From the sequence record LC739536.1: DNA of 64,000 bases. The stretch is one strand, 5' to 3'. The DNA comes from Escherichia phage phiWec187. Shown piece by piece: positions 4,821 through 32,666 of this stretch. How positions within the stretch are numbered: the stretch's first letter is position 1; every line of letters starts with the position of its first letter. The position numbers and the translations under genes are program-made. Under the pieces are notes generated by a model, which searched no databases, was not told the DNA's origin, and saw only the letters and a program-made list of their open reading frames with translations.

Positions 4821-5138
4821 ATGAGAACCTTAGCTTTGTATATTGATCCTCACTCCATTCGAGAAATGCGAGATGTACAACAGGATTATGAATTCTACCC
4901 AGAAATTTGTGAACGCTATGAAACTATTCTTAGTTCTGTAGAAGATCCAGATACCAGTGAAACAGGTGTTTCCCACTTACTGTGGATGTTGAATGAAGTT
5001 CAGGATGGGTGTAATGGTATGTCTGAAACCAAACGCCATCGTTGGCTAGGCTATATTCAGGGTGTTATGGTTATGAAAAACCTTATTACAGTGGATGATG
5101 AACGTAACGCTACACGCCCCGTCTTTAATGGAGCATAA
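4821..5138 (+). CDS. hypothetical protein
   Basis: track ORF; GAGAGGTG RBS before ATG; first gene after the noncoding region. Confidence 0.55.
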   Translation: MRTLALYIDPHSIREMRDVQQDYEFYPEICERYETILSSVEDPDTSETGVSHLLWMLNEVQDGCNGMSETKRHRWLGYIQGVMVMKNLITVDDERNATRPVFNGA

Positions 5139-5139
5139 C

Positions 5140-5355
5140 ATGAAAAGCATTCAGGTGTGTATTGAAAATAATTGTGGTTATCTGGGATTGACACACGTTG
5201 CTTTCCCTCTTATATTAGATGCCGATATCGCTTACAGCGGAGTTGCTTATGTGTCATTCAAGACAATGAGCCAAGTACCTGGCTGGAAGTGGGAAGTAGT
5301 TGATGTTGTTGAAGGAGAAGACTATGTTTTCCTTCCACACGAATATACTGTTTAA
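5140..5355 (+). CDS. hypothetical protein
   Basis: track ORF 5095-5355 trimmed to Met16 (ATG 5140) directly after upstream stop; GGAG RBS. Confidence 0.5.
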   Translation: MKSIQVCIENNCGYLGLTHVAFPLILDADIAYSGVAYVSFKTMSQVPGWKWEVVDVVEGEDYVFLPHEYTV

Positions 5356-5551: not shown

Positions 5552-6004
5552 ATGTTTGAAATTGGTAAAGTGTATCGTTTTAAGAACCCATCTTATATCC
5601 GTAAGTTTGCTAACGTGTCTGAGTGCAATAGCAGGATTGCTTCTTTTTTAGGTGATTCCTATTTTCGTGTATTAGATGTGGATGATTGGTATGGTGTCAC
5701 TGCTTTGCAATCCTTAGCAGGAGAACAAGAAATTATCGCTCAAAATGAAGGAGACTTTCTTCAGTGTTACACGTTGCTTGCAAAAAGTGAGTTTGAATAC
5801 TTTGTAGAAGTATTAGAAGAAGCACCAAAAAGTAAGCATGAAGAGAAATACCTGCTTGTAGTGGATGGAGTTCCGATCATGGAAACCATCTCCCGTGAGG
5901 AAGTTGAAAAAGAGGCGAAACGTTACAAGCTGGATCGTACACAGAGTGTAGTTGAAGTCTATTCTCTTGTTGGTGTTGCAGATATTAGTGTGAACATCGT
6001 ATAA
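5552..6004 (+). CDS. hypothetical protein
   Basis: track ORF; AAGGAG RBS. Confidence 0.6.
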   Translation: MFEIGKVYRFKNPSYIRKFANVSECNSRIASFLGDSYFRVLDVDDWYGVTALQSLAGEQEIIAQNEGDFLQCYTLLAKSEFEYFVEVLEEAPKSKHEEKYLLVVDGVPIMETISREEVEKEAKRYKLDRTQSVVEVYSLVGVADISVNIV

Positions 6005-6007
6005 TAT

Positions 6008-6220
6008 ATGTGTAATGACAGATACATTCTTCGTGTATCTGATAAGTCTCCTATGTTTGACTGGCGGGGCTGGTGGCTACTAGCTCCGATGCAAGGTCTG
6101 ACAGACGTGGAAAAGGAGGCTTATGTGTATACAAAAGAAGAGATAGAAGATAGTCTTTATTTGACAGATAACATTAAGAATGGTATCTTTGAGTGTAAAT
6201 TGAAAGGAGAGGAAGAATGA
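6008..6220 (+). CDS. hypothetical protein
   Basis: track ORF; stop/start overlap with next gene. Confidence 0.5.
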   Translation: MCNDRYILRVSDKSPMFDWRGWWLLAPMQGLTDVEKEAYVYTKEEIEDSLYLTDNIKNGIFECKLKGEEE

Positions 6221-6516
6221 CTATTACAGAAAAACTGCGCTGTATTGCAAAGCAAAGTGGAGAAGGTTTATGGTTTCCTATTGAGGAAATTATTCAGGAC
6301 TGTTATGATCAGGCTAAGACTGGCAAATACTCCAAAGCATTTAAACCGTCTGTTTTCGGTTTGGATGATTATCCAAAAAATGAACAAGCAAAGAAACGAC
6401 AAGTTGATTTGATTGATCTTGCTATGGAAGCACTACGAGAGCATGGGCTTAGTAAGGTGTATGCTTTAAACACCAAAGAGGGCTTTGTAGATTCAGTGAT
6501 CGTAGACTGGTATTAA
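6217..6516 (+). CDS. hypothetical protein
   Basis: track ORF; ATGA overlap with upstream gene. Confidence 0.55.
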   Translation: MTITEKLRCIAKQSGEGLWFPIEEIIQDCYDQAKTGKYSKAFKPSVFGLDDYPKNEQAKKRQVDLIDLAMEALREHGLSKVYALNTKEGFVDSVIVDWY

Positions 6517-6525
6517 GGAGAAGTC

Positions 6526-6894
6526 ATGCAAGAGAATAGTAAAGTGTGTAGCATGAAAAGCAGCCCTTATTTGCTACAATTTTATGAGTGGTGGTTAGAA
6601 CAAGAAGATACAAACTTTAGCAAAAAGCATTATGGTCTTTGCACGTGTCTTGTAGACTTCTTGTACAATATTGCTTGGATAAAAGATGTTGAGAATGTAT
6701 CAAAGCTCCAATCCTCTGTACGAGAGGAAATGAAGGAACAATTTAAGAAAGCGGGTTTGAACCATTTACATCCGTTTAATACGGATTTCTCGCACTACTT
6801 TACGGAAACAGAACTAGGCATTGCACACCTTAATAAAGAACGTGTACAATGGGTGATTGATCGTATTCGTGATATGGAGGAATACAATGGTTAA
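6526..6894 (+). CDS. hypothetical protein, paralog family A
   Basis: shares LLQFY, LxHLHPFN and HLNKERVxWV blocks with ORF 7518-8102. Confidence 0.55.
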   Translation: MQENSKVCSMKSSPYLLQFYEWWLEQEDTNFSKKHYGLCTCLVDFLYNIAWIKDVENVSKLQSSVREEMKEQFKKAGLNHLHPFNTDFSHYFTETELGIAHLNKERVQWVIDRIRDMEEYNG

Positions 6895-7105
6895 GTTTAA
6901 AACTTTCTGTGCAATCACTGTTTGTCTTATTCTTGCATACGTGTTATTCTCTAGTATCATTCGTTTAGGTGAGTATATGGCAAGAGAAGCTCGTGAAAGT
7001 GAAGCTAAAAAAGAACAGTGTATTGTGTTCAAGCATCAAAGAGATGCTGAAAAGTTTCTCGCACTTGATTGCAATCGCTATGTATCTTATCAAATGTATG
7101 AGTAA
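6887..7105 (+). CDS. small membrane protein, paralog family B
   Basis: track ORF trimmed to Met11 (GGAGGA RBS); N-terminal TM helix; C-terminal ExCIxxKHxxxAExFL block shared with ORF 11599-11823. Confidence 0.5.
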   Translation: MVKFKTFCAITVCLILAYVLFSSIIRLGEYMAREARESEAKKEQCIVFKHQRDAEKFLALDCNRYVSYQMYE

Positions 7106-7114
7106 GGAGGATTT

Positions 7115-7339
7115 ATGGTAAAACGTCTGGAATGGGATGCGTGTACTGCTCACGCTTGTCACTGCGATATTGTTGAAGATCCTAATGGAGAAATGGTGTA
7201 TTATGAAGATTACGAAGCATTGCACAATGCTGTGATTGCTTTGCTGGATGATATTAGCTCACGCTATCCAGGACAACAGTTTACGTGTCCACATATTCAA
7301 CTGTTAGCCAAACTTACGGAGTATCCAAGTGTTCCATAA
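7115..7339 (+). CDS. hypothetical Cys-rich protein, paralog family C
   Basis: CDIVxDPxGExV...DY block shared with ORF 12475-12747; AAGGAGGA RBS. Confidence 0.55.
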   Translation: MVKRLEWDACTAHACHCDIVEDPNGEMVYYEDYEALHNAVIALLDDISSRYPGQQFTCPHIQLLAKLTEYPSVP

Positions 7340-7340
7340 T

Positions 7341-7508
7341 ATGGGTGTCCCTGAACAACTCCTCTTTATTGTAGGACTAGTAGGCTTATTGGCGGCTGGC
7401 GCTAAAGCCGCTTCTCACACGCATCACATAATGTTAAGATTTCTATTCCTACTCCCTTCTATCCTCGTATTATTAGTCATACTGATCGACAACATTTTTC
7501 ACAATTAA
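7341..7508 (+). CDS. small membrane protein (55 aa)
   Basis: ATG 7341 right after upstream stop; two hydrophobic segments; no clear RBS. Confidence 0.3.
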   Translation: MGVPEQLLFIVGLVGLLAAGAKAASHTHHIMLRFLFLLPSILVLLVILIDNIFHN

Positions 7509-7517
7509 GGAGAGGTC

Positions 7518-8102
7518 ATGAGTAAAATTATACCAAGCAGTTATGAATTATTGCAGTTTTATGTATATTATATAGACTGGGTTACTAGATCGAATGTTAA
7601 AGACAATGCGATGTTTAGTAAAAGCATCTGTTTAACAGAAAGTATCTTCCGTTACTGGCACACAGGTAGAAAGTGTACACACAGTGAAGCTATGCGCATT
7701 GTAGGTGAATACCTGGAGCAATTGCAAAAAGCAGAGTTACCTGTCCTTCACCCATTCAATGAATCTAAAGAAGAATTAGAACAAGAATGTAAGGAAGGTA
7801 AGTGCCATTTGAATGAAAAACGTATCGAATGGGTAAGGCAACGTTTAGCCGATGCAGGAAAGCCTCCTAGTGACTCTGACTATACGTGGTATGATGTAGA
7901 GGGTTTAGTTCAAGGTTTTGAGGCTTGTGCTATAGATAATACCAACTTTGCCAAAGTTTTATGCGAGGCTTATGACCTGGCAGATAAAATCCGAAATCAT
8001 GGATGGAAACAAGAGCATAAAGAATCATATGAACGCCTTGACAAGATTTTCAAACAGATCTATTCTAACCACAAGAAGATGTTCCAAATGGAGGATGTGT
8101 AA
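7518..8102 (+). CDS. hypothetical protein, paralog family A
   Basis: AAGGAGAGG RBS; conserved blocks with ORF 6526-6894. Confidence 0.55.
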   Translation: MSKIIPSSYELLQFYVYYIDWVTRSNVKDNAMFSKSICLTESIFRYWHTGRKCTHSEAMRIVGEYLEQLQKAELPVLHPFNESKEELEQECKEGKCHLNEKRIEWVRQRLADAGKPPSDSDYTWYDVEGLVQGFEACAIDNTNFAKVLCEAYDLADKIRNHGWKQEHKESYERLDKIFKQIYSNHKKMFQMEDV

Positions 8103-8788
8103 TGAAAGAGATTATGTTTGAAGGGCATCGTTACGAAGTTCCAGACAATGCAAATTTCATGGCTCGTGATATCACTGGAGATGTGTTCTGGTTTGAAGAT
8201 GAACCTGTGTTTTCTTCGAACAAACACTGGTTTTCACAACAATCTTCTTCGGAAAATATGACTTTTGGCTACGTAGAGCCTAAAGTGCGCTGCAAAGCAG
8301 CTTCTTCTTTGGTAAAAATTTCCCAAGATGATCAAGAAAATACTCCAGATGTTGTTAGTGCACTACTGAAGTACATTGCAGAACTTGAGAAGAAAATTAA
8401 AGAAGCAGAAACTAAGGTGAAAGCACGATCAGCAATCATCGAAGCTATGTCTGAACGTATTTTAGAACTAGAAGATTTGTGTGGAGAGGCTTATCAAGTG
8501 GTCGGTGCACTGGCTTATGAAGCACAAATGTTTGAAACTTCAGAACAAGTTTCACATATGTTAGATAATTTAAGTGAATGTAAAATGATTCATGATGATG
8601 TATTGCCATTTTGTTGCAATGTTAACAAAACAGAGCAAACAGAAGATTCAGAAACAGTTTATGTTCCGCTGATGTGTGTTCCAGATCATCTAAAAGGTGT
8701 ATTCTCTTGTAAATGGTCACTGTTGAGCGTTACTAATTGTGGTGAAAACTATTCTGCCAACATTGAATTGCTAAAACACGTTAAATAA
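8102..8788 (+). CDS. hypothetical protein
   Basis: track ORF; start overlaps upstream stop; coiled-coil-like middle segment. Confidence 0.55.
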   Translation: MKEIMFEGHRYEVPDNANFMARDITGDVFWFEDEPVFSSNKHWFSQQSSSENMTFGYVEPKVRCKAASSLVKISQDDQENTPDVVSALLKYIAELEKKIKEAETKVKARSAIIEAMSERILELEDLCGEAYQVVGALAYEAQMFETSEQVSHMLDNLSECKMIHDDVLPFCCNVNKTEQTEDSETVYVPLMCVPDHLKGVFSCKWSLLSVTNCGENYSANIELLKHVK

Positions 8789-8798
8789 GGAGAGTAAT

Positions 8799-9203
8799 AT
8801 GTGGTCTGTTAAAATCAAATATAATGCGCAGTATTATGGTGGAAAGCCTTACGAAGTTGTTATTTGTGACTGTATCTCTAAAGAAGTTGCACAGCTTTGT
8901 GGCGCTGGTGTTAGTGAAGCTATGAACAAAATGCATAACTCTACTGTGCGTTACCTGGATCAAGATATTCCAGAAGATGTAAATGACTATGCTTACGAAG
9001 TTATTTACAGTGAAGGTAAGAAGCTCTCTATTGAAGATGCACTTAAAGCACTACCTGCTATGTGCAGCCCAACACCAGAAGCAGTTAAAGAGATTTTACC
9101 AGAATCCAACCCCGATGAATATGCTGCTATGGTTGCTTCGGACATGTGGAATCTCTGTCGAGAAACTATGATTAAAAATCTGGTGGAAATGGCGCATGAG
9201 TAA
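8799..9203 (+). CDS. hypothetical protein
   Basis: track ORF; AAGGAGAG RBS. Confidence 0.55.
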   Translation: MWSVKIKYNAQYYGGKPYEVVICDCISKEVAQLCGAGVSEAMNKMHNSTVRYLDQDIPEDVNDYAYEVIYSEGKKLSIEDALKALPAMCSPTPEAVKEILPESNPDEYAAMVASDMWNLCRETMIKNLVEMAHE

Positions 9204-9414
9204 AACGCACTTTATACATCCGTTTGATCCAAAGAACAAGGCGGTTATACACCGCCGTTGGACTGAAACGCGCATTACAAAATGTCCTGTGCCAGCAGCA
9301 CAGGAATATAACAAAACATATAAAGCAGAATTTGTGGAGTACACCTTTGTAAATAACAAAGGGAAGGAGGTTTATGTTCCAGAATACTGCCTTTGGATAA
9401 AATGGGAGGAATAA
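9196..9414 (+). CDS. hypothetical protein
   Basis: track ORF; overlapping start/stop with neighbours. Confidence 0.5.
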   Translation: MSKTHFIHPFDPKNKAVIHRRWTETRITKCPVPAAQEYNKTYKAEFVEYTFVNNKGKEVYVPEYCLWIKWEE

Positions 9415-9581
9415 TGCAAACATTTTTTATCGACAAGTTCAATAAAAGTATGAACACGTGGATGGCAACATTCACTATGCAATTTGCGTCATTTAAAGAA
9501 GCTCAAGAATGGTGCGATCAACACAAGGATTTTGATTTTTACTATCAAGTTAATGCAAATCTTTCTCCAGAGGAGAAATAA
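9414..9581 (+). CDS. hypothetical protein
   Basis: track ORF 9393-9581 trimmed to Met8 (ATG 9414) with GGGAGGA RBS. Confidence 0.45.
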   Translation: MQTFFIDKFNKSMNTWMATFTMQFASFKEAQEWCDQHKDFDFYYQVNANLSPEEK

Positions 9582-9582
9582 T

Positions 9583-9927
9583 ATGTTAGCTGATATTGAA
9601 ATCCTTATGTACCGACAAGGTATGATCAAAATGTGGCTAGATTCTTTTAGCAACATCTACTGTACAGTGCGATCAGCAGACGAGCGTAAAACGCTTATTT
9701 TATCTGCTATTGTTGATAAACAACGTTTCTTCAAAGAAATTTTGCAAACAGGCTTCTCCGATGCAGGAGTAGAGATTGCAACGCTTAGTCTTGGAGTGCT
9801 GTCTTACTTGGAATCCGTTGTTTTATATGTCTTCTCTTTAGAAGAACACTTGCAATTTGAAGCATTAAAACTTATCTTAGATGCTGCAATTGACATAGAA
9901 CAAAATCGAATTGATTCTTTTGAATAA
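9583..9927 (+). CDS. hypothetical protein
   Basis: track ORF 9484-9927 trimmed to Met34 (ATG 9583), GGAGAAA RBS; avoids overlap with upstream gene. Confidence 0.5.
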   Translation: MLADIEILMYRQGMIKMWLDSFSNIYCTVRSADERKTLILSAIVDKQRFFKEILQTGFSDAGVEIATLSLGVLSYLESVVLYVFSLEEHLQFEALKLILDAAIDIEQNRIDSFE

Positions 9928-9943
9928 AAATAAGGAGGAAACT

Positions 9944-10402
9944 ATGCAAGAGGTTAAACATTATCCACATGGTCGTAGTTTTGTAGCTGTATGGCATGTT
10001 CCTGCTCGTAATGAACTATTTTGCGCATCTTTTCATTACAAAGATGGACAATATTTCACCTATGACGAGACGATGGATGATTTTATCCCAGAGTGCGATC
10101 ATGGGTATACACCAATGTTCTTTAAACGTATGAAAGCTCGTTTCTTCGTTACAGATGTTGATGGTGAACCTACTTGGCACATCGAAGAAGATTGGCAAGA
10201 TTCTGTGGATATTAAAGAAGCCCCAGAATGGGCTACATTACTGGTACACGTCAAAACCCCTACTCTTGACGTTATGGCGTGGGTTAATCATGATGATACC
10301 CATTACCAATACATAAATGGTAGCACAGAGATTTCTGGTGAGATTATTGGTCGTTGGAAGCCTACGAATCAGGTTGCTATTGTCGGGTATAAGACAGTAT
10401 AA
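9944..10402 (+). CDS. hypothetical protein
   Basis: track ORF trimmed to Met12 (ATG 9944) with TAAGGAGGA RBS. Confidence 0.55.
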   Translation: MQEVKHYPHGRSFVAVWHVPARNELFCASFHYKDGQYFTYDETMDDFIPECDHGYTPMFFKRMKARFFVTDVDGEPTWHIEEDWQDSVDIKEAPEWATLLVHVKTPTLDVMAWVNHDDTHYQYINGSTEISGEIIGRWKPTNQVAIVGYKTV

Positions 10403-10403
10403 T

Positions 10404-10598
10404 ATGAAAAATAGTGTAGATTGGGATGATTTATCCGATTTTGAAAAATGGTTCTTAGGTAGTGGTTGTTATGCAGATGGGGATCTCGAAAGAGATCCTT
10501 CTGGAAACTACACTATGCCATTAACCCAAGGTTTTTATGAGTGCTGGTGCGCAGCACAAAACAACGTACTGAATAAGGAGACAACACAATGCAATTAA
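10404..10598 (+). CDS. hypothetical protein
   Basis: track ORF 10317-10598 trimmed to Met30 directly after upstream stop; weak RBS. Confidence 0.4.
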   Translation: MKNSVDWDDLSDFEKWFLGSGCYADGDLERDPSGNYTMPLTQGFYECWCAAQNNVLNKETTQCN

Positions 10599-10828
10599 AC
10601 ATCGGACAACCAATTTTTGATGCAGATACTGGTCAATATGCAGTGATTGTTGCTCGTATGAGCGGTGATGACCTTATTGTTTCAGAACTACTCGGATCAG
10701 ATCCGCAACTGCGCGTAGTATGTGACCTATATCTTCGAGACGAAAGTGATCGCATTGCACTGAAAGAAGATGGTATGCTCTACTATACCTGGACTAGAGA
10801 TCCTGGGGTAACGGAGGTAGAGGTATAA
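10589..10828 (+). CDS. hypothetical protein
   Basis: track ORF; AAGGAGACAA RBS. Confidence 0.5.
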   Translation: MQLNIGQPIFDADTGQYAVIVARMSGDDLIVSELLGSDPQLRVVCDLYLRDESDRIALKEDGMLYYTWTRDPGVTEVEV

Positions 10829-11127
10829 TGGTAAGGAATAGGGGTTTACATAAAAGAAGACACCTTACTTACTGGCATCGTAAAGTACATGAACCTGTAT
10901 CAAAGAAAGAATGGCAATATCTGCCTTATGGGAAGGAGCGAAGAAAGTATCTGTTAGCTCACTTAAGGGTACATGGTTCTCTTCCTGTTAACAGTAAGTG
11001 GCAATTGCAAACAGCTTATGACGAAGATATGAAATATCTGTTAAAGAGAGGCATTATTTGCCTTGTTAAGATAGGACGATGGAAATCTCGTCAATCTTAT
11101 ATCGTACTTAAACAGGAGAAACGATGA
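10828..11127 (+). CDS. hypothetical basic protein
   Basis: track ORF; Lys/Arg-rich, possible nucleic-acid binding (inference). Confidence 0.5.
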   Translation: MVRNRGLHKRRHLTYWHRKVHEPVSKKEWQYLPYGKERRKYLLAHLRVHGSLPVNSKWQLQTAYDEDMKYLLKRGIICLVKIGRWKSRQSYIVLKQEKR

Positions 11128-11375
11128 ATATCAAAGATGTTGTAGCATACGTAGAAGATGAAGTTAAAAACCATACAAGTTTACTGAAAGTAATGGTTGT
11201 GGTTAAAGATGGTATTGGACAAGTAAACGTACAACATGTCTTATCTGACACTGTATATAATGTGTTTGAATGTAAAGAAACACCTCATGGAGTACGTGTT
11301 GTTTATATTGATAACAATTTCAAAGAATGTGTGAGACATACCTTAGAAAATGAACTAAGGATCACAATCTTATGA
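11124..11375 (+). CDS. hypothetical protein
   Basis: track ORF; ATGA overlap with upstream gene. Confidence 0.5.
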   Translation: MNIKDVVAYVEDEVKNHTSLLKVMVVVKDGIGQVNVQHVLSDTVYNVFECKETPHGVRVVYIDNNFKECVRHTLENELRITIL

Positions 11376-11545
11376 GTTATTATGTTGTACCTTATGCCAA
11401 TAAGTGGAGAGTAAGAGAAACTTGTTTTCTATTCTCCTGGTGGGCTACGTTCGGAGATGGTTGTGGAAATGATACAGGAAAGCCTGTAGAGTACGACACA
11501 AAAGAAGAATGTGAACAGTGGATAAAATTAACACAAAGATGTTGA
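11372..11545 (+). CDS. hypothetical small protein (57 aa)
   Basis: ATG 11372 overlapping upstream stop (ATGA); Cys/Trp-rich; under track cutoff. Confidence 0.4.
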   Translation: MSYYVVPYANKWRVRETCFLFSWWATFGDGCGNDTGKPVEYDTKEECEQWIKLTQRC

Positions 11546-11598
11546 CACGATCTTAACTTCTTGTTAGTATCAATGTGTACTAACGATAAGGAGGGTTT

Positions 11599-11823
11599 AT
11601 GAAGTCTGTAAACAAGTTGCAACAATTTTTGTTATCAACAGCAATCTTTTTGCTTTTGTTAATTGGTATTCTGTATGGTGCATCTAACTTATACAATCTA
11701 CATAATGATGTAGAACAGAATAAAGAGAAGTGCATCATTCTAAAACACAAGAAACAAGCAGAAGATTTCTTAAAGAATAAGTGTTACAACTACATTGATT
11801 ATGAGGAGACAAACAATGATTAA
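11599..11823 (+). CDS. small membrane protein, paralog family B
   Basis: AAGGAGGG RBS; N-terminal TM helix; EKCIILKHKKQAEDFL block matches ORF 6887-7105. Confidence 0.55.
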   Translation: MKSVNKLQQFLLSTAIFLLLLIGILYGASNLYNLHNDVEQNKEKCIILKHKKQAEDFLKNKCYNYIDYEETNND

Positions 11824-12058
11824 AGAATTAGGTATGCGAGTATACAGTGAGTGGACTCCAAGCAATGGCCCAGGAGTTGTTGCAGCTAAATGTATCAATG
11901 GTCGTATTGAGTACCTGGAAGGGTATGAAGATAATGAAGAATTAGTAGATTATGCTAAATCTTTTATTGAAGATGATACAGACTTTATTGTATTATATGA
12001 TACAGGAGAGTTAGAGTATGGATATGATGGAGATGGGGATATCTTTGAACTTCAATAA
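11816..12058 (+). CDS. hypothetical acidic protein
   Basis: track ORF trimmed to Met8 (ATG 11816) with GAGGAG RBS. Confidence 0.5.
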   Translation: MIKELGMRVYSEWTPSNGPGVVAAKCINGRIEYLEGYEDNEELVDYAKSFIEDDTDFIVLYDTGELEYGYDGDGDIFELQ

Positions 12059-12265
12059 GAGTAGTAAGTAAGGTATAGAGAGTATATAGTTAGTTATAGA
12101 GTTAGTAACATTACATATACTCTTTCCATGTATAACATGGAATATTCTCTACCTCGCTATCGCTCGGTATATAAGATTAGGGTAGCATGTTTTTTACGAA
12201 AAGTAAAACTGTTTATACCGATTGATAGCAGGTTTTTAATAGATTCTATCTATGAGGAGTAGAAA

Positions 12266-12484
12266 GTGTACAAATTATATAAAGGAAAAGATAAGTTTAC
12301 GGGTAATACATCTGGTTTCTATGTAACACCACGTGGTGTTGCTGTGTTCGATTGGATCTCTGGTACGCCAGATCGTGAAATGATCTCTCTTGTAAAACTG
12401 TCAGAACAAGATTATACTTACGGTGACATTACAACATTCTATTCTCGTGCAGAAAATCCAAAACTGATTGCGGAGTGGGAATAA
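12266..12484 (+). CDS. hypothetical protein
   Basis: GTG start at 12266 with GAGGAG RBS 6 nt upstream. Confidence 0.5.
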   Translation: MYKLYKGKDKFTGNTSGFYVTPRGVAVFDWISGTPDREMISLVKLSEQDYTYGDITTFYSRAENPKLIAEWE

Positions 12485-12747
12485 TGGTTACACGATATGA
12501 TTTAGAGGTGTACAGCCAAGGTGCTGCTGGTCAATGTGATATTGTACCAGATCCAGAAGGGGATTATGTTCTTCTTGCTGATTACAATAAGCTAGAAGAA
12601 AGACTTCTGGCTGTGTATGCTAAAGAGAACAAAACAATCTGTCCTTATTGCAGTGGAATGGGTTGGGTAGTTGCAGATGTTGGACAGATGTATGAATGTG
12701 TGCCTTGTAAAACCACAGGATTTATTGAAAAGGATACTGACAAATGA
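12475..12747 (+). CDS. hypothetical Cys-rich protein, paralog family C
   Basis: QCDIVPDPEGDYV...CPYC...CVPC; block shared with ORF 7115-7339. Confidence 0.55.
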   Translation: MGIMVTRYDLEVYSQGAAGQCDIVPDPEGDYVLLADYNKLEERLLAVYAKENKTICPYCSGMGWVVADVGQMYECVPCKTTGFIEKDTDK

Positions 12748-12992
12748 CTGTAGCAGATAAAATGAGAGAACTGGCAGAAAACGCAGAACTTAACAAAGCA
12801 AAGGAGAGTTTACAAAATATCTACGCGTATATTGAAAGAGCAGCTAAAGATGGAGACAGAGAAGCTGCTATATACACGCTTTATCCAACTTTCGTAAAAG
12901 TTAGCTTGGATGCTGAAGGTTTTTCAACTTTTATCGATACAGAAACATCTCATTACGATGAAAACTTTACTCGAATAGTTATTCGATGGTAA
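12744..12992 (+). CDS. hypothetical protein
   Basis: track ORF; ATGA overlap. Confidence 0.5.
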   Translation: MTVADKMRELAENAELNKAKESLQNIYAYIERAAKDGDREAAIYTLYPTFVKVSLDAEGFSTFIDTETSHYDENFTRIVIRW

Positions 12993-13097
12993 ATTTCTGA
13001 TATTTATGCGCCCTGGCTACCTGGGCGTAATAAATTCAGCTTATATTTGATCCGCGCCTTCGGCGCTTAGGCAAAGCCACGCCACATAGGAGAGTTT

Positions 13098-15123: not shown

Positions 15124-15411
15124 ATGGAACTAGTGCAAGAAGTTTATGAAAAACTGAAAGAAGAGAATCTTGATTGGCCTGAACATGCTCTTATTGTCGT
15201 CAAAGATACTAATGGTGAAATAAAATTCTCAAGTGTAAGTGAAGATGATGTTGTTTTAAGTCCTACAGGATATTATATGAGAGGTGTTACGTGTCTATTC
15301 AACACCAAAGTGTATCCTGAAATTAAACTTAGTTACGGTGAACCTGATCATCCAGATATCGTTACACGTAATGAATATGAAAATTATTATTTTGCTCGTG
15401 AAAGCAAATAA
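15124..15411 (+). CDS. hypothetical protein
   Basis: track ORF; GAGGAGG RBS. Confidence 0.55.
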   Translation: MELVQEVYEKLKEENLDWPEHALIVVKDTNGEIKFSSVSEDDVVLSPTGYYMRGVTCLFNTKVYPEIKLSYGEPDHPDIVTRNEYENYYFARESK

Positions 15412-15419
15412 GGAAAACT

Positions 15420-15743
15420 ATGCAAAAAATAAACACTGGTTCTCGTCCTAAACAGAAGCAAACAAAAGCAAGGGTATCTTATGTTGACAAATCTTGTTAT
15501 AATTTCAAAAATGTTAAAGAAGTTATCATTGATGAAAAAGAAGGTTTGATTCACATTTCATCTGAACGTTTGAAAGGTAGTGTTACTCTTCGTGAGAATG
15601 TATCTATACCTATGAAAGTTGTGGCTACACTCTGTGTTGATAAACCAGATGTTGTTAACTACTATGTGTTCCGTGATAGTTGTATTTCATTACATAATAA
15701 GATTTTTAAATCTTCGCACGTTAAAACAAAACACATTGTATAA
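15420..15743 (+). CDS. hypothetical protein
   Basis: track ORF; AAGGAAA RBS. Confidence 0.5.
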   Translation: MQKINTGSRPKQKQTKARVSYVDKSCYNFKNVKEVIIDEKEGLIHISSERLKGSVTLRENVSIPMKVVATLCVDKPDVVNYYVFRDSCISLHNKIFKSSHVKTKHIV

Positions 15744-15749
15744 CACATA

Positions 15750-15772
15750 AACCCGCTTCGGCGGGTTTTCTT
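15750..15772 (+). terminator. rho-independent terminator
   Basis: AACCCGC-TTCG-GCGGGTT hairpin plus TTTCTT. Confidence 0.65.
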
Positions 15773-28471: not shown

Positions 28472-28738
28472 TTACTCCGCAATCTGAGCCATGAATTCAC
28501 GTAGTTCAGAAAAACCTCCTACGTGGGTTAGCTGTTCACCATCTTCCACAAAAATCTGAGGAAATGTGCGTGGTAGAACACCTGTTTTCTCTAAAACCAG
28601 ATTCTGAATCTGATCTAAAGAATAGTCTTCATCTAAGGTAAGGTATTTAAAATCCTGTTCACGCTGTTCTAGTAGAATCTTAGCGTTAGTGCAGAAAGGA
28701 CAATTTGGTTTACCGTAGATAATAAAATTCATTTTCAC
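28472..28738 (-). CDS. glutaredoxin-like protein
   Basis: CPFC active site in 88-aa thioredoxin-fold protein; likely RNR reductant. Confidence 0.7.
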   Translation of the reverse strand: MKMNFIIYGKPNCPFCTNAKILLEQREQDFKYLTLDEDYSLDQIQNLVLEKTGVLPRTFPQIFVEDGEQLTHVGGFSELREFMAQIAE

Positions 28739-29565
28739 TCCTTGTTTAAAAGTATAGTTAAAGTTCTTACAATACCACTATCAACACTTCGCGGATTTAA
28801 AGTAGGATCTGTTTTTAAATAAGATGTTGCTGGTCTGACTGCTTTGGAATTATAGGTTGAAGCAGATACAGGATTAACTGTAACAGACAAATCTATAACA
28901 AGAAATATCTTTCGTGCAAAATCATACCAAGAAATATAATCTGCACCTGCATAGTGTACAATTTTACTATTTACACCATCTTTTACAAGTTTAAAAATTG
29001 TTTCTGCAAGATCAGGTGCATAAGTAGGACACGACAAATGATCACATACTACATTAAATTCTTTTTGACCACCATTGTAGCGTTCCAACATTGTTTTCAA
29101 AAAGTTATGTCCAAATTCACTATAAACAGAAGCTGTTCTGATAATAAGTGCTGTAGGACAAACTGCTTGTACTAAAGTTTCACCTAATTGTTTACTGTAA
29201 CCGTAGGTGTTCAAGGGGTTTGTTTTACTCTCTTCTGTGCCAGCAACATGCCCATCAAAAACATAGTCTGTTGAAATATGTACAAACTGTATCAGTAAAT
29301 CATTACATGCTTTGGCAATGTTTGTTGCACCGTATGCATTAACATTTATACAGGTGTTAACATCTTCTTCAGCTTTATCTACTGCCGTGTAAGCCGCACA
29401 ATTCACAACAACATCAGGCACGTGCTGTACAAGACTATTCATAACATCTTTAAAGTTGGTAATGTCTATATCACTTGCTTCAATCAAAACAACATCTTCT
29501 GGTGCAACTTTTGCCAAAGATTGTCCTAATTGACCTTTTGAACCAAAGACTAAAAATTTTGTCAA
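28735..29565 (-). CDS. rmlD: dTDP-4-dehydrorhamnose reductase
   Basis: FGSKGQLG Rossmann motif, STDYVFDG, YGYSK; last gene of rml cluster. Confidence 0.75.
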   Translation of the reverse strand: MTKFLVFGSKGQLGQSLAKVAPEDVVLIEASDIDITNFKDVMNSLVQHVPDVVVNCAAYTAVDKAEEDVNTCINVNAYGATNIAKACNDLLIQFVHISTDYVFDGHVAGTEESKTNPLNTYGYSKQLGETLVQAVCPTALIIRTASVYSEFGHNFLKTMLERYNGGQKEFNVVCDHLSCPTYAPDLAETIFKLVKDGVNSKIVHYAGADYISWYDFARKIFLVIDLSVTVNPVSASTYNSKAVRPATSYLKTDPTLNPRSVDSGIVRTLTILLNKE

Positions 29566-31006: not shown

Positions 31007-31996
31007 TTAAACTTTATTTTCCCACCACTCTTTGTTATCTACATACCAATCAATGGTTGAATAAAGTTTTTCTTCAAATGTGCCTTTAGCTTTCCACCCT
31101 AATTCCTTTTCAATCTTATAAGGATTCACTTCGTATCTTAAATCATGCCCAGGTCTATCTGTAACCATCTCAATGAGGCTACAAGCATCTGTTTCAGATG
31201 GATACACCGCATCCATATAATCACAAATCATATAGATTACATCAATATTAGTTCTAGGGTTTCTGCTCCCAATATTATATGTTTCTCCAGATTTGCCTTT
31301 AGTTACTACTAGGTGTAATGCTTCTGCGTGATCGTCAACGTATAACCAATCTCTTACTTGAAGACCATTGCCATAAACAGGGATTGGTTTATTCATTAAG
31401 ATATTTGTTATCGTCTTAGGTATTAGTTTTTCTGGATGATGATATGCTCCAAAATTATTTGAACAATTTGTTATAACTGTCGGAATACCATAAGTACGAT
31501 GCCACGCTCTTACCAAATGATCGCTTGCAGCTTTAGATGCAGCATATGGACTACTTGGTTTATAAGGATTCTGTTCTGTAAACGGATAATCCCCTTCTTC
31601 CAGATCACCATACACTTCATCTGTTGAAATATGATGGAACATTTTAAGATTTGATTTATCTCCTATTAAACGAACAGCTTCTAAAAGATTAAATGTCCCA
31701 ACAATATTTGAATTTATAAAAACACTCGGTGATGCTATTGAATTATCTACGTGACTCTCTGCTGCAAGATGCATTATATAATCTGGATTAACATCTGCCA
31801 CAATCTTAGCAGTTAACTGAGCATTTGTCAAGTCAACACGACAAAACTTTACATTAGGTGTTTCTGATAAATTCCTAGGGTCTGAAGCGTAACCCCATTT
31901 ATCTATAACGTAAATATCATTCTTAGTATTTTTAGCCAGGAAACGAACTACTGCACTTCCAATAAAACCTAAACCACCTGTTACTAAGTATTTCAT
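31007..31996 (-). CDS. rmlB: dTDP-glucose 4,6-dehydratase
   Basis: [10 protein letters not shown] Rossmann motif, [19 protein letters not shown] (YxxxK). Confidence 0.85.
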
Positions 31997-32203: not shown

Positions 32204-32530
32204 TTACCAAACGTGTTGAGAAATAATAGTTTCCGTTTCAATGTTATATTTTTCAAGAATTTGTGCATAGGCTTCTTTTGCATTCTTATTTAGTTGCTCA
32301 AGATCTACAGCTACACTTCCTTCGCCACCTTCTAAATAAATCCCATATATGCAATAAGATGCATCAGCGTCATAGAAAGGTGAGATACGGCTTAAATCAA
32401 GACCTTCTTGTAAGAACCAATTAAAATCTCCATCAAATTCTTCTTCAATTCTAGGATCTTCTCCTACAGCCTCTTCCCATTTATTAAAAGGTGCACCCTG
32501 TAACATACGCCATTCAGTGGCAACTCCCAT
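32204..32530 (-). CDS. hypothetical acidic protein
   Basis: track ORF; GGAGG RBS. Confidence 0.5.
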   Translation of the reverse strand: MGVATEWRMLQGAPFNKWEEAVGEDPRIEEEFDGDFNWFLQEGLDLSRISPFYDADASYCIYGIYLEGGEGSVAVDLEQLNKNAKEAYAQILEKYNIETETIISQHVW

Positions 32531-32666
32531 TATCTTCCTCCTCTTCTTTTTCTTCCGTGTGAACGAAGCCTAAACCGTTACAATTCCAACACGGAATAAA
32601 TTGTTCCATACTAACAATAAAATTCCCAGTACCACCGCAGATAGGACAAATACTTACATCATCCAT
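32514..32666 (-). CDS. small zinc-finger protein (50 aa)
   Basis: CPICGGTG and CWNCNGLG (DnaJ-type CxxCxGxG repeats); GAGGAG RBS; under track cutoff. Confidence 0.4.
   Translation of the reverse strand: MDDVSICPICGGTGNFIVSMEQFIPCWNCNGLGFVHTEEKEEEEDNGSCH

Follow-up and report, generated by a model that had tools for sequence, protein, structure and literature searches.

Multi-copy families of small genes in the early, host-takeover regions are a general phenomenon of large lytic phages. The early block of phAPEC8 is of this kind, with small, packed genes on the same strand near the genome terminus, several paralog families, and a content that varies between relatives. A similar block is found in Escherichia phage phiWec187 (sequence record LC739536.1), of which a stretch of 64,000 nucleotides (nt), here called the window, was analysed. 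Six of its small genes form three pairs, A1 and A2, B1 and B2, and C1 and C2, which an earlier note on this DNA had regarded as a duplicated three-gene module produced by an ancient segmental duplication and later insertions. All three pairs are genuine paralogs. We think it fairly probable that they arose by three separate duplication or domain-swap events and not by the copying of one A-B-C block. The finding is one of ordinary phage early-region paralogy, in a genome that had already been sequenced and annotated. It illustrates how an early accessory region may evolve, by family amplification, domain swaps and cassette replacement, and it corrects a tempting over-reading, as paralogs that lie in the same order need not mean a copied module. 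Families A, B and C are functionally uncharacterised throughout, and the literature searched contains no description of the three paralogies, of these genes or of their PHROG identifiers.

The window represents a phi92-like Justusliebigvirus (Stephanstirmvirinae) at about 98% nt identity. Its bases 6000-13000 are matched by 55 phage records in the 95-99% identity band, with Escherichia phage phi92 at the top, and identities over these bases are 96.7-98.8% among the 25 of the 55 records listed. Window coordinates equal phi92 coordinates plus about 4211, which places the six-gene region 2-8.5 kb from the left terminal repeat, inside a block of about 30 small and tightly packed plus-strand genes. 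All six open reading frames (ORFs) lie on the plus strand where the earlier note had put them, and match annotated phi92 genes whose products are all hypothetical proteins. The first set is contiguous. A1 (phi92 gp006, 6526-6894, 122 amino acids (aa)) belongs to the helical family PHROG 2510, B1 (gp007, 6887-7105, 72 aa) consists of a hydrophobic helix and a Cys tail, and C1 (gp008, 7115-7339, 74 aa) carries the N-terminal module of family C followed by an SRYPGQxFTCPH tail; the stop of A1 and the start of B1 overlap by 8 nt, and 9 nt separate B1 from C1. The second set begins about 180 nt 3' of C1 and is dispersed over 5.2 kb in the same A-B-C order, as had been described. It comprises A2 (gp010, 7518-8102, 194 aa), in which an A domain is joined to a second domain similar to phAPEC8 gp42, B2 (gp022, 11599-11823, 74 aa), with a signal-peptide-like N-terminus and a Cys tail, and C2 (gp025, 12484-12747, 87 aa), with the C module and a CxxCxGxG-type zinc finger. 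The end of the C2 frame at 12747 agrees with the earlier description; for its start, the ATG at 12484 is a likelier candidate than the GTG at 12475 given there. Read from this ATG, C2 begins MVTRYD and aligns with MVKRLE of C1 and MIQRYD of its homolog in the Wifcevirus Mansfield, and the annotated phi92 start also corresponds to 12484.

Pairwise alignment bore out the three paralogies. By BLASTP, A1 and A2 are 30% identical over 114 aa (E=2e-11), B1 and B2 41% over 34 aa (E=2e-9), and C1 and C2 36% over 44 aa (E=6e-7). When all 307 window ORFs of at least 45 aa were compared with one another, the three pairs accounted for three of the five non-overlapping matches at E<1e-2; the remaining two join the zinc finger of C2 to an ORF at 32514-32666 on the minus strand, and an RmlB-like to an RmlD-like enzyme. 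PHROG profiles cross-match reciprocally within each of the three families. Hidden Markov models (HMMs) built from each pair together with its phAPEC8 homologs detected no further copy of A, B or C in the window. The motifs given in the earlier note are present, with two corrections to their exact form: the A motif is HLNxxRxxWV, since A2 reads HLNEKR, and the C motif is CDIVxDPxG(E/D)xV.

The proteins are short (72-122 aa) and the B and C alignments span only 34-44 residues, so that chance or composition in short AT-rich ORFs, some of them perhaps not genes, might be thought to produce such similarities. The shuffled-sequence control that the earlier note had called for speaks against this, as none of 2000 shuffles reached the observed Smith-Waterman score for any pair. 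The scores were 117 for A1/A2 (shuffles 31.6+-5.6; Gumbel P=2e-9), 86 for B1/B2 (23.3+-4.4; P=8e-9) and 69 for C1/C2 (24.5+-4.6; P=2e-6), while those of cross-family control pairs were not significant. The share of the all-versus-all matches taken by the three pairs and the reciprocity of the PHROG profiles also argue against chance. Moreover, the same motifs are conserved in independent homologs from other phages, and the ORFs are intact, with ratios of nonsynonymous to synonymous substitution rates (dN/dS) well below 1, in eight genomes. The explanation by chance or composition is effectively refuted.

None of the 55 Justusliebigvirus records lacks any of the six genes, and all six ORFs are intact in the eight Justusliebigvirus genomes sampled. 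dN/dS was estimated by the Nei-Gojobori method between orthologs of these eight genomes rather than between paralogs, whose 30-45% amino acid identity corresponds to dS far beyond saturation. The values are 0.03 for C1, 0.06 for A1, 0.08 for C2, 0.09 for A2, 0.16 for B2 and 0.39 for B1, compared with 0.02-0.13 for most neighbouring genes. All six genes are under purifying selection; both copies of each pair are therefore maintained and not redundant. The two B genes are the fastest evolving of the six, and their replacements concentrate where the hydrophobic helix ends and in the linker behind it. Raised ratios amid constrained neighbours were also seen in gp020 (10380-10598; 0.35) and gp017 (11124-11375; 0.51). 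The amino acid identity of gp017 falls to 0.40 in one genome and its start codon differs between annotations, so that a frameshift or a mis-called ORF is possible there.

Family A is by far the most widely distributed of the three. A1 matches phrog_2510 (E=1e-25), and A2 matches phrog_27059 (E=2e-139) as well as phrog_2510 (E=3e-17); PHROGs 2510, 27059 and 6418 are uncharacterised phage protein families. Word-indexed protein searches found few relatives only. A profile search of 1.84 billion cluster representatives recovered 2032 clusters at E<=1e-3 and 1086 at E<=1e-10, mostly stand-alone proteins of 100-115 aa, some with two or three tandem domains; a representative of 344 aa (P0015), for example, has three matched stretches, and a BcepSaruman protein of 344 aa is among the BFVD fold neighbours of the family. 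By tblastn the family occurs in 177 phage records. Its carriers are myo-, sipho-, N4-like and T7-like phages of Proteobacteria and include Ounavirinae (Arno18), Skatevirus (SeSz-2), N4-like Schitoviridae (Ea9-2) and T7-like Rhizobium phages (RHEph03). The loci in Ea9-2 and RHEph03 are small-gene blocks a few kb from the start of the record, where early genes lie, and two neighbouring genes of RHEph03 encode three A domains between them, one in gp008 (1708-2034) and two in gp009 (2159-2851). The domain is about 105 aa long and all-helical, with an invariant P-F and R-x2-W-V core, and its full signature reads L16 F19 Y20 W23, G37-L38-C39, Q72-F73, G77-L78, P83-F84 and H101-x-N103-x2-R106-x2-W109-V110. 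A1 retains this signature completely and is modelled by AlphaFold2 as six helices with a predicted local distance difference test (pLDDT) score of 80.9; it is a canonical representative of its family, which is large, all-helical and uncharacterised. Family A is not described by any model of Pfam, NCBIfam or PADLOC, the PADLOC defence models giving only a stray match to A2 (E=0.017), and no fold match or structural relative was found. A weak similarity of A1 to the sigma-S-binding protein Crl (E=0.028 to PDB 6kj6_J; E=0.031 to NCBIfam PRK10984) covers aa 9-71, centred on F-Y/W-x-W-W-x-E-x-E; it is not significant and was dismissed because the predicted fold of A1 differs from the alpha/beta fold of Crl.

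In the sister genus Phapecoctavirus, phAPEC8 possesses seven copies of family A (gp18, gp19, gp30, gp41, gp44, gp51 and gp54) and nieznany three. A1 is 42% identical to phAPEC8 gp18 and 33-36% identical to the copies in Ounavirinae, Skatevirus and Schitoviridae, compared with 32% to A2. A2 departs from the signature at the near-invariant G37, C39, F73 and G77. Its divergent A domain occupies aa 1 to about 115 and is followed by a domain of 75 aa (7875-8099), which is homologous end to end to phAPEC8 gp42 (E=1e-7). The gene for gp42 lies directly 3' of the A copy gp41, in a position collinear with A2, and A2 thus corresponds, by sequence and position, to gp41 and gp42 fused. The split between A1 and A2 is accordingly older than the split between the two genera.

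Family B is confined to Stephanstirmvirinae and its members, B1, B2, gp31 of phAPEC8 and one gene of FKP3, share a common build: an N-terminal hydrophobic helix and then a tail with the motif K-E-x-C-I-x-L-K-H-x3-A-E-x-F-L-x3-C-x2-Y-x2-Y, in which the two Cys, 16 residues apart, are invariant. In B1 the helix spans aa 7-25 (hydropathy maximum 2.55) and the tail has about 45 aa. For B2, the phi92 annotation records a signal peptide predicted by SignalP with a probability of 0.985. The similarity between B1 and B2 is limited to the C-terminal 35 aa or so, past the membrane helix, and family B has no sequence similarity to solved structures. phAPEC8 and FKP3 each have a single B gene. The B1 scores of 108-112 with these two proteins mark them as its orthologs, whereas B2 is an outlier to all three, with scores of 82-86. 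Full-length matches to B2 are found only in the 55 Justusliebigvirus records. Within the window B2 belongs to gp014-gp023, a segment without a collinear counterpart in phAPEC8, while its flanks are conserved (gp013 corresponds to gp48 and gp024 to gp60). The sole B gene of phAPEC8, gp31, overlaps the end of the A copy gp30 just as B1 overlaps A1. No B-like protein follows the other six A copies of phAPEC8, either by HMM or by hydropathy, and in FKP3 the B gene has no adjacent A.

Family C is held together by a module of about 45 aa at the N-terminus, M-V-x-R-x-D/E followed by C-D-I-V-x-D-P-x-G-x-x-V and D-Y-x-x-L. The similarity of C1 and C2 is confined to this module, and their C-terminal parts are unrelated. 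C1 matches phrog_23083 (E=1e-56); its AlphaFold2 model is of low confidence (pLDDT 70.6) and shows a short helix, a beta-hairpin at CDIV/EMV and a long helix, the module comprising the first two and the start of the third. The SRYPGQxFTCPH tail of C1 is shared with the N-terminal half of phAPEC8 gp36 (151 aa). Mansfield gp104 continues after the module with a coiled coil and a further domain, and the metagenomic protein P0162 with a different tail again. C1 is 56% identical to Mansfield gp104 and only 37% to C2. Neither fold nor sequence searches against solved structures gave a match for family C. The possibility that C1 is a Lar-like restriction alleviation protein was considered and rejected, the match to phrog_3592 over aa 2-48 being weak (E=8.7e-4) and C1 having no match in Pfam, the Lar model PF14354 included.

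The zinc finger of C2 lies at aa 50-85 approximately and contains the complete CxxCxGxG motif CPYCSGMG and the partial motif CVPCKTTG. These resemble DnaJ-type CxxCxGxG, anti-TRAP and Lar-like zinc ribbons (PF00684, PF15777, PF14354), with all Pfam scores, that of Anti-TRAP included, below the gathering thresholds (14.9 vs 32.7 for DnaJ_CXXCXGXG; 15.6 vs 32); the likeness to the DnaJ-type zinc finger lies in the part of C2 that is not common to C1. The phi92 record describes gp025 as a 'predicted DnaJ-like zinc finger'. Automatic annotation by similarity has given its orthologs in other phages the provisional names 'restriction alleviation protein' or 'DNA ligase'. The positional orthologs of C2 in phAPEC8 (gp62, 63% identity) and FKP3 (57%) keep the zinc finger and have a different, short N-terminus without the C module. 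The ORF at 32514-32666 on the minus strand (50 aa) is a small zinc-finger protein that is 32% identical to the C2 finger over 34 aa (E=6.6e-4), has sub-threshold Pfam matches to DUF5351, DnaJ_CXXCXGXG and Lar, and is unrelated to the C module. C2 is therefore a protein of two parts.

The phyletic distributions of the second copies differ. A2 has a collinear ortholog in Phapecoctavirus, whereas the Justusliebigvirus phages of E. coli alone have B2 and a C2 with the C module, so that the three duplicates do not have one common phyletic distribution. Furthermore, each first copy is closer to a protein of another phage than to its own partner: A1 to phAPEC8 gp18, B1 to gp31 and the FKP3 protein, and C1 to Mansfield gp104. 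Homology over the whole gene is not found in any pair, being restricted to about 45 aa in C and to the C-terminal 35 aa or so in B, while A2 has its additional gp42-like domain. As to the members of the block, A, B and C are each paired, and gp009 (7329-7508, plus strand, dN/dS 0.03), which encodes a 59-aa membrane protein with a hydropathy maximum of 2.78 between C1 and A2, has no partner in the window.

These observations would fit a history in which each pair has its own origin. Family A would be old and readily amplifying, with A1 and A2 separating before the divergence of Justusliebigvirus and Phapecoctavirus; A2 would later have diverged at core positions and been fused to its second domain. 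B2 would be a duplicate of a whole B1-type gene that arose in the Justusliebigvirus lineage only, and the cassette that carries it may have replaced the corresponding segment of the sister genus. C2 would be a small, conserved zinc-finger protein with, at its N-terminus, a module found also on C1 and on unrelated phage proteins, the sharing being at the level of the domain, by recombination or fusion.

Several points weigh against separate origins. Three independent events do not by themselves explain the A-B-C layout. With random placement, two collinear sets that do not interleave are expected with P=0.066, and with the first set contiguous as well with P of about 0.002, the latter being a post hoc value. 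The three pairs are of similar depth, at 30-45% identity. The outlier status of B2, judged from its sequence, fits equally well an origin before the genus split, with subsequent losses, and a recent duplication with rapid evolution thereafter; a decisive phylogeny is precluded by the shortness and divergence of the sequences. The same layout and depth, together with the status of B2, which is compatible with an old split, would be expected from a single tandem duplication of A-B-C in the ancestor of Stephanstirmvirinae, with insertions splitting the second set and with sister lineages losing B2 and the module of C2 and gaining A copies. That A2 begins only 180 nt past C1, as a tandem copy would, is consistent with it, and so is phAPEC8, which keeps the order A (gp30), B (gp31), C (gp36) and A (gp41), other genes intervening after gp31, with gp30 and gp31 overlapping at stop and start.

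Such a block duplication before the genus split, however, needs at least four extra losses, namely of B2 in both Phapecoctavirus and FKP3 and of the C module from the gp62-type genes of both, and because of these losses three events are rated above it. Neither the short stretch of homology in C, with C1 nearer to a Wifcevirus protein than to C2, nor the unduplicated gp009, nor the position of B2 in a lineage-specific cassette is what the copying of a block would leave. Family A also multiplies without B or C, as only one of the seven phAPEC8 copies adjoins a B gene and the Rhizobium phages have tandem fusions. Outside Stephanstirmvirinae the three families are not seen together, which also counts against a copied block. 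Between the first and second sets only short chance matches were found at the DNA level, and no trace of a copied block is left, though none would be expected at such divergence. The claim of an ancient segmental duplication thus keeps its paralogy and its collinear order and loses ground on the distributions of the second copies, on gp009 and on the C pair, which shares a module only. A single segmental duplication is weakly supported, and we regard it as rather unlikely; three separate origins are the reading retained here.

Two further paralog pairs were observed in phAPEC8. Its gp21 and gp33 (7976-8206 and 11486-11707) are both homologous to the window ORF at 5095-5355, and its gp26 and gp45 (9833-10132 and 15145-15699) are both homologous to gp005 of the window (6217-6516); paralogy is therefore pervasive in the early block of the sister genus. 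In nieznany the phAPEC8 segment gp18-gp31, with three A copies and the sole B gene, is absent, which indicates large presence/absence variation of families A and B within one genus.

Early expression of the six genes is suggested by their position near the genome terminus and by the place of family A in the early regions of N4-like and T7-like phages. From the same two features they may have early accessory roles in host takeover, anti-defence or exclusion. A is probably a soluble, helical protein of the cytoplasm whose partner, bound early in the infection, would be a factor of either the host or the phage. The B proteins are small, probably exported or anchored in the membrane, and probably carry a single periplasmic disulfide; this topology is inferred from their hydropathy, from the conserved pair of Cys and from the signal peptide noted in the phi92 annotation. 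They probably act at the envelope, where they might serve superinfection exclusion or modulate the envelope itself. B1 and B2, whose topology and disulfide are predicted, invite a purely functional analogy with the small exported superinfection-exclusion proteins of T4 of the Spackle and Imm type: they are small and early, begin with a helix that would serve as signal or anchor, and end in a short tail containing two conserved Cys. The raised dN/dS of the B genes fits an interface under conflict, and the pair deserves note for its fast evolution and probable export. The C module, small and portable, probably mediates interaction or oligomerisation and can be combined with various C-terminal parts.

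Whether A, B and C cooperate as a module of three proteins, kept in two diverged versions for different host variants, was also considered. The earlier note's statement that paralog sets in such regions often target different host variants is speculative here, and the one observation that bears on it is the faster evolution of the B genes (dN/dS 0.39 and 0.16, against 0.03-0.09 for A and C). A1, B1 and C1 are tightly packed, the adjacency of A and B is conserved in phAPEC8, and purifying selection keeps both copies of each pair across all 55 genomes of Justusliebigvirus; close packing with overlaps is, however, general among the genes of the block. Outside the subfamily the three families do not co-occur, A being found alone in the loci of Ounavirinae, Skatevirus, Schitoviridae and Autographiviridae; nieznany has A and C without B, and FKP3 has B without adjacent A. 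The second set is dispersed, a B-like neighbour is missing from six of the seven phAPEC8 A copies, and a natural deletion variant that lacks A2 through B2 retains C2. A cooperating module is very unlikely because A, B and C do not co-occur elsewhere.

The deletion variant is represented by Logan contig SRR3713844_547 (1550 bp), in which window 6265-7217 is joined in frame to 11924-12536 at the microhomology TATGAAGAT. This natural deletion of 4.7 kb (window 7218-11923) removes gp009, A2, gp011-gp021 and B2, and fuses aa 1-32 of C1 to the C-terminal part of gp023. The junction, with YYEDYE in C1 and GYEDNE in gp023, gave rise to the idea that gp023, the gene next after B2, is a diverged C-like gene. 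It was rejected: the Smith-Waterman comparisons of gp023 with five C-family members gave P=0.07-0.4, and the C-module HMM had no match.

Family A is the most useful lead. It is now delimited by its signature, has a structural model that can be used and is listed for several multi-copy genomes, and it is a reasonable candidate for anti-defence and host-takeover screens in phi92 and the BASEL phages (Bas60-62). Tentatively, it could form a new and widespread class of early phage effectors whose growth in copy number and divergence would be driven by an arms race against host targets that vary, defence systems for instance; the fast-evolving B proteins would then be a second family of this type.

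Among the other features of the region, a tentative sigma-70-like promoter match (TTGACA-17-TAGTAT with an upstream TG) lies at 11542-11570 on the plus strand, in the gap just 5' of B2; promoter-like sites in the region are not enriched over shuffled sequences (56 vs 48.9+-7.5). A strong, bidirectional, terminator-like hairpin at 15749-15768, AAACCCGC-TTCG-GCGGGTTT, has a T tract on both strands, and the sign of the GC skew changes near it; it is probably the end of the plus-strand early block. The only other sizeable paralog match in the window is that between an RmlB-like dTDP-glucose 4,6-dehydratase (31007-31996, minus strand; PF16363, E=4e-82) and an RmlD-like reductase (28735-29565, minus strand; PF04321, E=2e-73), phage-encoded sugar nucleotide enzymes of the rhamnose-pathway type with a common short-chain dehydrogenase/reductase (SDR) fold. 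Finally, records of 146 kb named 'Campylobacter phage' (MG0656xx; A150, A110a, A145 and C3) encode proteins up to 100% identical to those of the window. A1 is 100% identical in A150 and A110a, and B1, B2, C1 and C2 are 89-99% identical in these records, whose host label looks doubtful and is perhaps due to contamination or mislabelling.

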